A DNA stretch of 64,000 bases from a virus, in the IMG/VR virus record IMGVR_UViG_3300043539_001475, positions 37,211 to 101,210 of that record; one strand, 5' to 3'. Position numbers and translations under genes: made by a program. Shown in pieces: positions 56,625-61,029 of the stretch. Numbering within the stretch: the stretch's first letter is position 1; each line of letters starts with the position of its first letter. Below the pieces are notes generated by a model. It worked only from the letters and a program-made list of their open reading frames with translations, was not told where the DNA came from and did no database searches.

Positions 56625-57236
56625 TTAAAATAACGTTAGTGGTTTTGTTTTTGGTTTAGCATTTTTTAATCTTCCGTTTATTATTGGAATGTAATCATCT
56701 TCACGCTCTATTAATATATAATCTCTGTTGGTGTTTTTACAAGCAACTCCAGTACTACCGCTACCCGCAAATGGGTCAAGAATAACAGCCCCTTCTCTAC
56801 TAACTAGCTTTACTAAATATTCCATAAGAGCAATCGGCTTTACTGTTGGATGGTTGTTTTTATTTGGATTTCTATTTTCTGGATTTCTGCCATTATTCAA
56901 TAATCCTTCTTCGCTATGAAAACCACCATAATTAACTCTTTCTTTATCTAGCAAACCATCACAACCCGCATTACGTTCTGACTTGCTCGCTTTGGCACAA
57001 TAAAAAAATCGACTTGCATTTCCTTCGCTTGAATCGTGAATTTGCTTTGTACTTCCTGAAGGTGCGCCTAAACTATTACCGTTATTTTGATATTTATAGG
57101 CTTTTTTCATTGCACCACTTTTCGTATTGGGAAACATCGATACTACTTCTTCTGAACCGTAATTAGGAAGTTTATTAAATAATCCTTGTAAATCAATCGG
57201 CATTTTATTATATAATGTTTGTTCAATTGTTATCAT
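56625..57236 (-). CDS. N4/N6 DNA methyltransferase, C-terminal part
   Basis: SRFFYCAKAS, NNHPTVKP, LDPFAGSGSTG; ATG at 57236 preferred. Confidence 0.85.
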   Translation of the reverse strand: MITIEQTLYNKMPIDLQGLFNKLPNYGSEEVVSMFPNTKSGAMKKAYKYQNNGNSLGAPSGSTKQIHDSSEGNASRFFYCAKASKSERNAGCDGLLDKERVNYGGFHSEEGLLNNGRNPENRNPNKNNHPTVKPIALMEYLVKLVSREGAVILDPFAGSGSTGVACKNTNRDYILIEREDDYIPIINGRLKNAKPKTKPLTLF

Positions 57237-57271
57237 TGTATTTTCTATTTTCAAGTTTATAATGGCATTTT

Positions 57272-58150
57272 CTAGGTGTTCTCATTTAGCCATTTATATA
57301 ATTTATATATCTGTTCTTTAGTTAAATTATCTTTGCAGGTGTATTCATTTTCGGGATAAGATAAAATTAAATTTGCAGGGAAACGACCTATAGGATTTGA
57401 TGGGGTTGCCTTGTCTTCTGCAAATGCTGAATATATCTTATCAGGACTATCAGAATAGTTAGTTGTTGGATTTTTAGATGCTTTATTATCCATAATTTCC
57501 TTATCTTCTTGAGAGCTTTCAACTCGACTACCATCAATATCAATTCCTCCAGTTCCCCATTTCAAGACATTTAAAGCAACTGTTTTTTCGGATAAAGGCT
57601 TTCTTGCCATAGTTATTGGCTCTAATGCTGGTTTTAAAGCTGTACCCCAACCTTCCCATTCAGAGTTTCCTTTGGTTAATTTTTCTACTCCATATCCAAA
57701 TTGTTTTTCATTATTTCTATTTGCTTCATCTGCTAAATAACCACTACCATTTAGTTTCGCTTTCTGAACATCGCCACGTTTTATTTCCCCAACAACTTCC
57801 CTTTCATTTCCTTGCAAGGCATCAACAGCTTTTCCAATATTCAAACTTTTAGGGAAGCCCGAACCGTAAACCCAAGCTATCATATCCCTAATTTCAAATC
57901 CCGCATCTTCTATTCTTACAGCCATACGATGTTGCGTTCTAGTTCCTGCAAAAGCTAATAAGTAACCTCCATGCTTTAAAACTCTCAAACACTCTTTCCA
58001 TATCTCTTCACTAGGAACGTCATAATCCCATTTCTTACCCATAAATGATAGTCCATAAGGAGGGTCTGTTACAATTGCATCTACTGAATTATCTTCGAGC
58101 TTTTTAAGCTCTTCTAAACAATCCCCGTGCATGATTTTTTCTAACTTCAT
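57272..58150 (-). CDS. N4/N6 DNA methyltransferase, N-terminal part
   Basis: GDC, VTDPPYG, RVLK.GG, GSGFPKS, ALKPA.EP, RFPAN. Confidence 0.9.
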   Translation of the reverse strand: MKLEKIMHGDCLEELKKLEDNSVDAIVTDPPYGLSFMGKKWDYDVPSEEIWKECLRVLKHGGYLLAFAGTRTQHRMAVRIEDAGFEIRDMIAWVYGSGFPKSLNIGKAVDALQGNEREVVGEIKRGDVQKAKLNGSGYLADEANRNNEKQFGYGVEKLTKGNSEWEGWGTALKPALEPITMARKPLSEKTVALNVLKWGTGGIDIDGSRVESSQEDKEIMDNKASKNPTTNYSDSPDKIYSAFAEDKATPSNPIGRFPANLILSYPENEYTCKDNLTKEQIYKLYKWLNENT

Positions 58151-58815: not shown

Positions 58816-58938
58816 TTAAACGCTTAAATGACTAATTACTATCCACCAAAATATTAAAGCAAACAAAACCTGCGCAATCAAAATCCAACCGTACATTGGA
58901 TAGTCTTTTTCGATTAATTTATACTCTTTCTTGGTCAT
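58816..58938 (-). CDS. 40-aa TM protein (not in ORF track)
   Basis: MTKKEYKLIEKDYPMYGWILIAQVLFALIFWWIVISHLSV. Confidence 0.55.
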   Translation of the reverse strand: MTKKEYKLIEKDYPMYGWILIAQVLFALIFWWIVISHLSV

Positions 58939-59138
58939 GGCGTGTTTATATTTCTGTAATCTGTGTATGGGTACATTTTACCGCTAAATGATTCTGCGTA
59001 ATCGCAATCTGTGCATTGATGTGGGTATATTGGAGGGTATGATGCAAGAACACTGCCAACTGGTCTTAGATAACCGTCCTTGCATTTAGGACACTTGTAG
59101 TCAATCCTTACGGTTTTAACTTCTTTAATTTCTTCCAT
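58935..59138 (-). CDS. Zn-ribbon protein
   Basis: CPKC..CTDC. Confidence 0.7.
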   Translation of the reverse strand: MEEIKEVKTVRIDYKCPKCKDGYLRPVGSVLASYPPIYPHQCTDCDYAESFSGKMYPYTDYRNINTP

Positions 59139-59162
59139 AGTTTTTTGTTGTTAATTGGTTTG

Positions 59163-59518
59163 TGGAGGCGGGGAGATTCGAACTCCCGTCCAAACAACTT
59201 TGGTTATTACAATTTATACAGCTTTTTTTGATACGATTTTAAAGTTGTAGTATCATTCAACTAGGGTCTACTGTTAAAAGTAAACAAACCACCACCTGAT
59301 TTAATCTAATCAGGAAATCCTTTTAATGTTTAGGCTACTAATTGTAGTTCTTCAACATTAGGGTTAATCAATGAAAAAACTTTGCTCATGTTAGCGTTAA
59401 CTTGGTCAACATCTAACGAAATTACTTTGTTGTCATTTATTAAATTCACCTTAGTTTACAGTTATCTCTCTGGCTGATTGTAATAATTAGTGGTTGTCTG
59501 TCAAATCCAGTCGCCCCC
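59163..59518 (-). ncRNA. ssrA: tmRNA (356 nt)
   Basis: 5' GGGGGCGACTGGATTTGAC; 3' GACGGGAGTTCGAATCTCCCCGCCTCCA; acceptor stem with G3-U70; ATAAAT-GAC resume site; tag ORF 59434-59330. Confidence 0.93.
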
Positions 59519-59530
59519 TTTTTTAAAAAT

Positions 59531-59560
59531 ACCAAAGCGGATTTTTAAGTCCGCTAAGGT
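59531..59560 (-). terminator. Hairpin between the DUF932 gene and the tmRNA 5' end
   Basis: AGCGGA/TCCGCT stem. Confidence 0.55.
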
Positions 59561-59574
59561 ATTAAATTTAATTC

Positions 59575-60483
59575 TTAAATAGAAACTGAAACGGGTTTTG
59601 GTAAAGAATCTACGATGATGTTGTAGGCATTTAAGTTCTTTCTGTAACCGCTACCAATCATCACGTTTTCAAGACTTTTCCCATCCTTTACATCTTGGTG
59701 GTTAGTCTTCCATGTAACAGCATTGAATAAGCCCCATAAGGTATGTCCGTGAGAGTTTAATTCGCTATCCAAAATCTCTTTGAACTTGGATATTTCGTTA
59801 ACCTTTCTAGTTGAAAATTCAGAAGTTTCCTTATCGAAATCAACTACGTCAAAGTCAAACAAATCAGCTATAACCCTTTTGGTAACAGCAGTACTAATTT
59901 TAACGTCAGCCATCCTTTTGTAGTTATCCATAAGACCACATTCAATTCTTAAAATATCGTTGATTTTCTTTCTTGCTAATTCTATTCTTGAAGAAGCAGA
60001 AGCAGTGTGTCTAAATCTAGTTACATCCTTCATAGCAAGGTGAAATGTGTTTTGACAAACCACAACCTTATTAGTAAAGCCAAATCCAATAGAAGAACTA
60101 CCATCGTGACTATTAAGACCAGTAACGTATCTTTCAATCGTGTCGTTAGCTACAATAGTGTCAGGCAATTGAGCTTGATAATAAACCTTTTTACCGTTAT
60201 ACAAGGAACCACCTCTAAACTTTTCAGTAATGTCCATAGAAGCTTCAATAATGTTTTCAGCTAATGCAGAATTTTGCATTGTTTGATACTGTTTTCCAAC
60301 AGTTCCTAGCCAAAGGTTATTATCATTACGATAGATACCAAAGCTTTCAGTAGGATAGCCGTCATCACATTTTAAAGGCTTTTTGGTTACGCTCCAATTG
60401 GTTTGAGTAGCATTTAATAAGTCAAATGTTTTATTAAACACTTGCTCTTTAGTTTCATTAGGGATTTCATTCATAGTTTCCAT
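59575..60483 (-). CDS. DUF932 (phage/plasmid-like) protein
   Basis: LG.VG..Y...QN, NSHDGS, VVC.NT, RHT, TLWGLFNAVT. Confidence 0.85.
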   Translation of the reverse strand: METMNEIPNETKEQVFNKTFDLLNATQTNWSVTKKPLKCDDGYPTESFGIYRNDNNLWLGTVGKQYQTMQNSALAENIIEASMDITEKFRGGSLYNGKKVYYQAQLPDTIVANDTIERYVTGLNSHDGSSSIGFGFTNKVVVCQNTFHLAMKDVTRFRHTASASSRIELARKKINDILRIECGLMDNYKRMADVKISTAVTKRVIADLFDFDVVDFDKETSEFSTRKVNEISKFKEILDSELNSHGHTLWGLFNAVTWKTNHQDVKDGKSLENVMIGSGYRKNLNAYNIIVDSLPKPVSVSI

Positions 60484-60588: not shown

Positions 60589-61029
60589 TTACTCTCCTTT
60601 AAATTTAAGTTTATATTTATCCATTAATTGTTGTAATTCACAAAGTGACATTACACCAATATGACGAAATTTATAAATTTCTAATCTTCTAAATTCAGAA
60701 ACTTGACCTAAATACATAATATCAGCAACTCTTAAAGAGTTTTTAAGTCGATTAGACATATCAATTTCTTCTATAGTTATTGCATTAGCATTAATAAAAT
60801 GTCTATCTATTTTTTCGTTAATCGCTTCTGCAATAAACCTACCCATTTCATCTTGAAAATCATTTGCTTCATTCACATCTTTACAAAGTTTTAGAATACT
60901 TCTATAACCACATATTGTAGCAATTAATTCAGTATTTGTATTTTTATCGTTTTTCCCCCAAATGCAATTTCCTCCCAAATGTATATTGTAATCAACTTTA
61001 CCTATAAAATTTACGACTCTATTTTCCAT
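60589..61029 (-). CDS. Protein with RNA polymerase alpha-CTD-like domain
   Basis: IEEIDMSNRLKNSL..A.I..LG........KFRHIG..SL.EL. Confidence 0.75.
   Translation of the reverse strand: MENRVVNFIGKVDYNIHLGGNCIWGKNDKNTNTELIATICGYRSILKLCKDVNEANDFQDEMGRFIAEAINEKIDRHFINANAITIEEIDMSNRLKNSLRVADIMYLGQVSEFRRLEIYKFRHIGVMSLCELQQLMDKYKLKFKGE

Follow-up and report, generated by a model that had tools for sequence, protein, structure and literature searches.

A virus-encoded tmRNA with a 34-residue tag belongs to a phage lineage with a conserved tag core

The tmRNA gene and its tag frame

The 64,000-nucleotide (nt) stretch of viral DNA analyzed here (the window) corresponds to bases 37211-101210 of the 101,210-bp IMG/VR virus record IMGVR_UViG_3300043539_001475, which CheckV rates as 100% complete. 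On its minus strand, at positions 59163-59518 (all positions are those of the window), lies the gene of a one-piece transfer-messenger RNA (tmRNA), 356 nt long from the 5′ G to the discriminator A. A sequence-only reading of this DNA had claimed an intact virus-encoded tmRNA with a G3-U70 pair, a T-arm and no encoded CCA, and had named ARAGORN and Rfam RF00023 as checks. Both agree with it, as does the sequence itself. ARAGORN found one tmRNA in the window (59162-59518, minus strand), and RF00023 matched 59160-59518 over the full model (1-374) with 82.6 bits, the gathering score being 47, and an E-value of 1.6e-30. The 5′ acceptor strand GGGGGCG (59512-59518, minus strand), which bears the G3 of the G3-U70 alanine identity pair, pairs with CGCCUCC over 7 bp, G3-U70 included. 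The tRNA-like 3′ part (59163-59187, minus strand) comprises the T-arm (59171-59187; GGGAG-UUCGAAU-CUCCC, loop UUCGAAU), the 3′ acceptor strand (59164-59170) and the discriminator A (59163). As the latter is followed by CAA, CCA is not encoded. Thus, the features expected of a tRNA-like domain (7-bp stem, G3-U70, T-arm with T-loop, discriminator A, no anticodon arm) are all present. Also, the RNA folds more stably than shuffled sequences (z = -3.9), with the acceptor stem, a long helix 2 and the T-arm in its minimum-energy structure.

Upstream of the tag frame, the pseudoknot 1 (PK1) region carries the sequence GAGATAACTG-T-AAACTAAGGTGAA (59445-59468, minus strand), which alignment and pattern scans revealed as a signature nearly invariant in the family of phage tmRNAs described below. 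Downstream of it, the PK2-4 region is shortened to 106 nt (59224-59329, minus strand); folding predicts three hairpins there, and the confidence of the Rfam alignment is low across this region. PK2-PK4 elements vary among tmRNAs. Without its tag the window tmRNA measures 251 nt, host tmRNAs having a median total length of 397 nt with a 30-nt tag frame. Across the family the length of the PK2-4 spacer is 31-194 nt, with a median of 103 nt; many members are therefore very compact RNAs, about 30% of which is tag frame.

The tag frame (59333-59434, minus strand), established by translation and family alignment, counts 34 codons from the resume codon GAC (Asp; 59432-59434, minus strand) to the stop codon TAA (59330-59332, minus strand), which follows the C-terminal ...ELQLVA; with the charged alanine the added peptide would have 35 residues. 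Translation of 59330-59446 (minus strand) gives an open frame ending in ...EELQLVA-stop, the nearest upstream stop being a TGA four codons before GAC. The resume context reads UAAAU|GAC (59439-59432), as expected for the resume codon of a tmRNA. By comparison with the family and the host context, the frame-setting U(-5) and A(-4) lie at 59438-59439 (minus strand) and are the equivalents of E. coli U85/A86. A86 is nearly universal and dominates frame choice in the E. coli tmRNA (PMC2481249).

ARAGORN itself reports a tag of 26 residues, starting at a GUU eight codons 3′ of GAC, and this GUU, too, has U(-5)A(-4) before it. Resumption at GUU or at another codon, with a tag of 26 residues or fewer, is the alternative that the sequence-only reading had raised against its own 34-residue tag. 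It is not upheld, and we regard it as highly improbable. In the Rfam alignment GAC sits on the consensus resume codon, and the homologous codon in 102 distinct relatives is GGC (53), GGA (28) or GAC (21). In every one of them 9-13 nt separate this codon from the PK1 signature, and in 100 U(-5)A(-4) stands before it. In host-type tmRNAs of Bacteroidota, the heptamers TTTAAAC, TTTAAAT, ATTAAAT and ATTAATT precede a GGC resume codon in the same way as in the family, with U(-5)A(-4) in 70 of 73. Several relatives have an in-frame stop two codons 5′ of the G/D resume codon, which brackets the start. By comparison, the start points given by ARAGORN are not homologous between relatives, and its tags span 8-32 residues. 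The conserved core of the tag, moreover, would be retained even in the 26-residue reading. On these sequence comparisons, the 34-codon tag from GAC is the right reading and the ARAGORN start lies eight codons too late, so that the tag had been correctly read from the start.

The description of this tag as exceptionally long has to be qualified. It holds against the host tag of 9 residues, the 27-residue tag of Mycoplasma (PMC8403727) and the 25-residue tag of mycobacteriophage Bxz1, and the commonest tmRNA tag length overall is 10 residues (PMC11915505). Within its own family, however, a tag of 34 residues is ordinary: the 102 relatives encode 24-49 residues, with a median of 35. Stop codons in the family are TAA (82 sequences) and TAG (18).

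A phage-only tmRNA lineage and its tag peptide

We defined the lineage by the combination of the PK1 signature GATAACTG(N0-12)AAACTAAGGTGAA, a tag of at least 24 residues and an invariant Q-x-x-A-N-M core with V at +3. The window tmRNA shows all three, and the closest tags (loci L028, L183, L007 and L206) are 85-88% identical to its own. Among sequenced phages, BLAST retrieved only Cellulophaga phages, namely phi14:2, which belongs to the Steigviridae (Crassvirales), and phi38:1, phi40:1 and Calle_1-3, which belong to the Pervagoviridae. Scans with two exact patterns of the PK1 signature gave 38 + 103 = 141 viral contigs. The same patterns, run against one genome each of 185,579 bacterial and archaeal species, gave three matches, two of which, in a Pirellulaceae and a Smithella metagenome-assembled genome (MAG), are off-family in spacing. 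The third (L267; JBIPLT010000239.1) is the sole family member in this collection. It lies on a 4.9-kb contig of a Flavobacteriales MAG from Lake Mendota that shares its IMG dataset number with a viral contig of the family (L004); the contig is probably phage DNA that ended up in the bin of its host, and hints at a freshwater Flavobacteriales host.

The tmRNAs of the bacteria are of another kind. The generic Bacteroidota 5′ end GGGGnnGACTGGnTTTGACAG was found at no fewer than 120 bacterial loci, many of them in Flavobacteriaceae, and among the matches listed the tags were mostly 9 residues long (GENNYALAA in 57 of 104, or one-residue variants). By BLAST, the similarity of phage and host tmRNAs is confined to the 3′ 33-35 nt. 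Similarity being limited to the 3′ end, the phage RNA is a tmRNA of Bacteroidota type that has diverged as a separate viral lineage, rather than one captured recently or left as an attachment-site (att) fragment.

Two members of the family deserve separate mention. The phi14:2 tmRNA (KC821624.1; L003:3001-3470, L231:2893-3361) is 469-470 nt long; it is found by ARAGORN and falls below the Rfam gathering score. By homology its tag has 38 residues and ends in AMVA, for 11 residues given by ARAGORN. A variant tmRNA (L013:2430-2793, minus strand, together with the truncated L030) has no ANM core. It has a 49-residue frame that keeps '...MMVVH...' and an IAA end, adjoins a cluster of nine tRNA genes, and possibly arose through frameshifting indels.

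Base pairing in the RNA is well conserved. Among 79 distinct full-length members, canonical pairing reaches 100% at the seven acceptor positions and 99-100% at the five T-arm positions, variable pair positions show two to six pair types with compensatory changes, and G3-U is present in 78. This pattern indicates that the tRNA-like domain is under selection. The family 3′ end is A-C followed by variable bases, and CCA is encoded in none.

The tag peptide is constrained as well. The core of the window tag, QVNANMSKVFSLIN (tag residues 11-24; 59363-59404, minus strand), contains the Q, A, N and M that are invariant in the family, and all members except the variant above share the ungapped core Q-[VI]-x-A-N-M-x-x-V-[FH]-[SN]-[LI]-[LI]-x. 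Codons turn over beneath these residues: Ala is encoded by GCT, GCA, GCC or GCG, Asn by AAC (47) or AAT (36), Val by GTA, GTT or GTG, Ser by TCT, TCA or AGC, and Leu by TTA, TTG, CTT or CTA. Mean column entropy peaks at third positions (1.19, versus 0.84 and 0.65), and the pairwise ratio of nonsynonymous to synonymous polymorphism (pN/pS) is 0.47 in the tag frame, versus 0.85 and 1.11 in the other two frames of the same alignment. The conserved residues with synonymous variation precede the sole AUG, and in the window no canonical start codon stands before them. Conventional initiation thus fails to explain the conservation, since these codons lie 5′ of the only AUG, while resumption by trans-translation can explain it. 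Taken together, the codon patterns indicate that the tag core is selected as a peptide.

With an alignment of 71 tags as input, AlphaFold2 models residues 9-23 of this peptide as a helix (the mean predicted local distance difference test score for residues 11-20 being 92) and places a second, short helix at the C-terminus. A tag-profile search of 1.84 billion protein representatives gave 77 matches, all of 28-94 residues and nearly all C-terminal; these are clusters at 50% identity in public protein collections. The matches inspected are miscalled open reading frames (ORFs) reading through the tmRNA 5′ region, and the module therefore seems restricted to these tags. A look-up of the tag in the ESM Atlas returned only scores below 0.9, on tiny viral ORFs, and was uninformative.

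Over its length, the tag opens, in a host-type resume context, with a G or D and then an N or K, continues with an inserted stretch of about 25 residues within which the conserved helix lies, and ends in AA in 95 of the 102 relatives, in VA in 6 (the window and phi14:2 among them) and in GV in the Calle/phi38:1 type. The sequence-only reading had seen in the non-AA end a sign of altered or redirected proteolysis. This sign is weak, given the AA ends of most relatives. Also, ClpX recognizes a terminal LVA; in a screen in E. coli no degron was enriched more strongly than FKLVA, for which ClpXP showed much the same kinetics as for YALAA (PMC10862746). Hence the ...QLVA end of the window tag gives no indication of an escape from proteolysis, and redirected proteolysis rests only on the internal module, whose conserved core does suggest a modified fate.

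Genomic setting and search for partners in the virus

The surroundings of the gene are those of a phage, as had been claimed. Its neighbors are of phage type (DUF932/phrog_1221, a phrog_9369 ORF, YopX, DNA methylases and other PHROG families). The upstream neighbor encodes a DUF932 protein (phrog_1221; 59575-60483, minus strand), and the downstream one is a 67-residue ORF matching phrog_9369, of unknown function (58935-59138, minus strand). A terminator-like hairpin with a U-rich tail (59536-59555, minus strand) ends 17 nt 5′ of the tmRNA start and probably marks the end of the DUF932 gene transcript. No sigma-70-like promoter was found upstream of the window tmRNA; the Bacteroidota promoter motif TAnnTTTG occurred in just 4 of 76 upstream regions of the family, which had no k-mer in common. 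Besides the tmRNA, the record contains a single tRNA gene, for tRNA-Gln, about 79 kb away.

Two other features of this region were observed. Two genes upstream of the tmRNA, a phage protein of 146 residues (60589-61029, minus strand) matches PF03118, the domain at the C-terminus of the bacterial RNA polymerase alpha subunit (E 5e-9), and may be a transcription-hijacking factor. On the other side, the adjacent ORFs 57272-58150 and 56625-57254 (minus strand) match the N- and C-terminal halves of one N6/N4 DNA methylase family (PF01555), and the pair (56625-58150) may be a split or frameshifted methyltransferase gene.

The sequence-only reading had noted that the window contains no smpB. The observation extends to the entire virus record and to 44 large virus records that carry a tmRNA of the family and of which 33 are at least 90% complete; SmpB was found in none of them. 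As the virus record is without SmpB, the tmRNA would require that of the host. ClpP (PF00574) is likewise missing from the record, Bacteroides control genomes being positive in that search, and gave no match above the cut-off in the 44 family-bearing records; the protease for tagged proteins apparently comes from the host.

None of the neighbors in the window recurs at any other family locus, and of the five genomes whose tags come closest to that of the window, four have no homologue of its 1233-residue protein. Thus, the tmRNA sits in unrelated genomic backgrounds and yet keeps its tag core.

Possible roles of the tag and comparison with known systems

We consider it probable, with real reserve, that the window encodes a functional phage tmRNA with a two-part tag, whose helical module acts as a second recognition element. 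Following the established tmRNA pathway, the host alanyl-tRNA synthetase would charge the RNA through G3-U70, and host SmpB and EF-Tu would deliver it to stalled ribosomes. Translation would resume at GAC (59434-59432), the 35-residue tag would be added, and release would occur at TAA. The tag is host-like at both ends, with a Gly/Asp start in a UUAAAU-type context and a ...L-V-A or ...A-V-A-A terminus of the sort that ClpX-type proteases recognize. Between these ends stands the module of about 25 residues with its predicted helical core Q-[VI]-x-A-N-M-x-x-V-[FH]-[SN]-[LI]-[LI]. As a second recognition element, which is its most likely role, the module would let the phage decide what handles the chains freed from stalled ribosomes; candidate handlers are an adaptor, some other host protease (Lon or FtsH, for example) or a phage factor. 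The phage tmRNA would also add rescue capacity during infection and compete with the host tmRNA for SmpB.

Since the core is conserved at the amino-acid level and found nowhere else, we argue that the tag peptide itself has a job in infection. With a predicted helical core that is selected as a peptide in a phage-only family, the tag probably does more than mark proteins for destruction. The E. coli tag has an SspB-binding half. By analogy, a two-part tag could be likened to that half, and to the Lon-directed tag of Mycoplasma (PMC8403727). More specifically, the module could be a handle of the phage on all proteins released from stalled ribosomes, read by a dedicated partner that would be either a host adaptor or protease other than ClpXP, or a phage protein; this narrower proposal is tentative, and its chances seem to us somewhat short of even.

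Several observations weigh against this account. When ORFs of at least 50 residues were clustered over 142 family loci in search of a linked partner gene, no cluster was present in more than 42 loci, and no binding partner for the tag module was found. The hydrophobic moment of the core, 0.36, only modestly exceeds that of shuffled sequences (0.22 ± 0.12), 13% of which reach this value; for this reason we do not call the core strongly amphipathic. The PK1-region sequence is almost invariant in about 100 distinct phage tmRNAs, and the pairs of the Rfam consensus PK1 are flagged there as non-canonical. This invariance leaves no covariation to read, and manual pairing gave no convincing pseudoknot. 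With a PK1 region devoid of the Rfam pairs and a shortened PK2-4 region, activity on host ribosomes is therefore an assumption. Also, family members were retrieved by sequence pattern, which biases the sample toward conserved ones. Finally, that the RNA is expressed, is charged and works with host SmpB, and what the module does, are points that we infer. A look-up of sequencing runs for the phi14:2 homologue (L231:2400-3900) listed no RNA data set, which speaks neither for nor against expression.

A simpler view is that the main benefit lies in added ribosome rescue against host anti-phage RNases (anticodon nucleases, mRNA interferases, CRISPR-associated RNases), the length of the tag being secondary. 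Rescue from such RNases was also the function proposed by the sequence-only reading. A phage tmRNA without its own SmpB acts solely through host trans-translation, and phage tmRNAs are widespread and usually explained as sustaining the hijacked translation machinery (PMC9004378; PMC7162821). However, no sequence link to RNase defence was seen: RtcB was searched for and not found, and a search for T4-type RNA ligase (Rnl1), which gave no match in any control genome either, was uninformative. As this view also leaves the peptide-level selection on the 25-residue module without an explanation, we find it unlikely, while giving it some weight. That the module is no degron at all and would stabilize, relocate or repurpose the tagged chains, for example through helix multimerization or as a lysis-timing signal for a phage regulator, would account for a conserved, predicted helical core confined to these tags. 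Tags of 24-49 residues emerge largely from the ribosome before release, and some phages use tmRNA activity as a physiological signal (PMC7162821). With a canonical hydrophobic AA/VA degron end in 101 of the 102 relatives and no partner gene, such a role is quite unlikely.

The RNA could also serve as a decoy that draws SmpB from the host tmRNA and shuts down host tagging, the peptide being incidental. The phages of the family are without SmpB, and the DS6A phage tmRNA, reduced to the tRNA-like domain, inhibits the host tmRNA when expressed in E. coli (PMC4131195; PMC11915505). A pure decoy needs no tag, though, and all full-length loci recovered for the family have an uninterrupted tag frame that is under purifying selection, which makes this explanation very unlikely. 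Hardly credible is the idea of a functionless copy of a host ssrA gene, or of an att-site remnant in a temperate phage, even if integration often takes place at tmRNA genes and fragments of ssrA can be carried by phages (PMC9004378; PMC11590407). The gene is full length, its likeness to host genes is limited to the 3′ 33-35 nt, compensatory changes run through the 79 distinct RNAs, no tyrosine integrase (PF00589) was found in the whole virus record, and the signature was not found in bacterial chromosomes. The class of prophage att-site or ssrA fragments was set aside on these grounds.

Textbooks present tmRNA tags as short degrons, and the tmRNAs of phages are usually written off as a reserve for ribosome rescue. 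In the present family, over 100 distinct phage tmRNAs, from at least two named virus families and in unrelated neighborhoods, keep a tag 3-4 times the host length, which raises the question of what reads it. Cultured models exist in Cellulophaga baltica with phi38:1 or phi14:2 and in Cellulophaga sp. with Calle. If the tag proves to be a handle, phages in several unrelated families would seize what host trans-translation produces, and not merely supplement it, which would add a new level to the control that phages exert over protein quality control in the host. There are also consequences for annotation. ARAGORN shortens these tags inconsistently, and gene callers create spurious small 'proteins' at these loci (77 clusters). 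The tmRNA is annotated in Calle, while the GenBank records of phi14:2, phi38:1 and phi40:1 show hypothetical proteins at the locus, four of them (gp011-gp014) over the phi14:2 tmRNA.

Phage tmRNAs, as well as long or odd phage tags, are already known. They have been described in mycobacteriophages and Bacillus phage G (Hudson et al. 2014, PMC4131195), in 402 of 18,146 phage genomes (Buchholz et al. 2022, PMC9004378) and in huge phages (PMC7162821). The conserved extended tag of this lineage is undescribed in the papers that we found, and the supplements of the tmRNA-database paper contain neither Cellulophaga nor the tag motif.

The closest cellular counterpart is the SsrA RNA of Bacteroidota and Flavobacteriaceae (RF00023), with which the window tmRNA shares a 5′ end of the type GGGGnnGACUGGnUUUGACAG, G3-U70, the T-arm, a long P2 helix, UUUAAAC or UUUAAAU before a G-starting codon and a hydrophobic, Ala-rich C-terminus. 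It differs by its 34 encoded residues against 9 (3-4 times the host tag), its lineage-specific PK1 region, its shortened PK2-4 region and the absence of an adjacent smpB gene. Among phages, Calle_1-3, phi38:1, phi40:1 and phi14:2 have the same PK1 signature, a long tag and the Q..ANM..V core. The Calle/phi38:1 tag, however, is just 29% identical to that of the window, and virus families and gene neighborhoods differ; the Calle paper counts 'one tmRNA' (PMC8776804), without discussing its tag.

Mycobacteriophage Bxz1 and Bacillus phage G also encode one-piece tmRNAs with atypical tags, of 25 residues ending in LV and 13 residues ending in ELQVA, respectively (confirmed here; cf. PMC4131195). 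Their lineages and tags are unrelated to those described here, their genes lie in tRNA clusters, and the 34-residue tag of the window is longer. The phage G tag (L271:1501-1809) ends in ...NNELQVA, much like the ...EELQLVA of the window; given two unrelated RNAs, the tags may have arrived at an E-L-Q-(L)-V-A terminus by convergence. The extended ssrA tag of Mycoplasma (27 residues) is, like that of the window, far longer than the usual 10-14 residues, and its extra residues reportedly serve recognition by a different protease, Lon (PMC8403727, citing Gur & Sauer 2008, Ge & Karzai 2009). That tag is cellular and belongs to a lineage without ClpXP, whereas the present RNA is viral, its presumed host phylum, the Bacteroidota, has ClpP, and the sequences are unrelated. 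We therefore do not assign the window tag to a Lon-specific class of Mycoplasma type, and retain the resemblance as a functional analogy.

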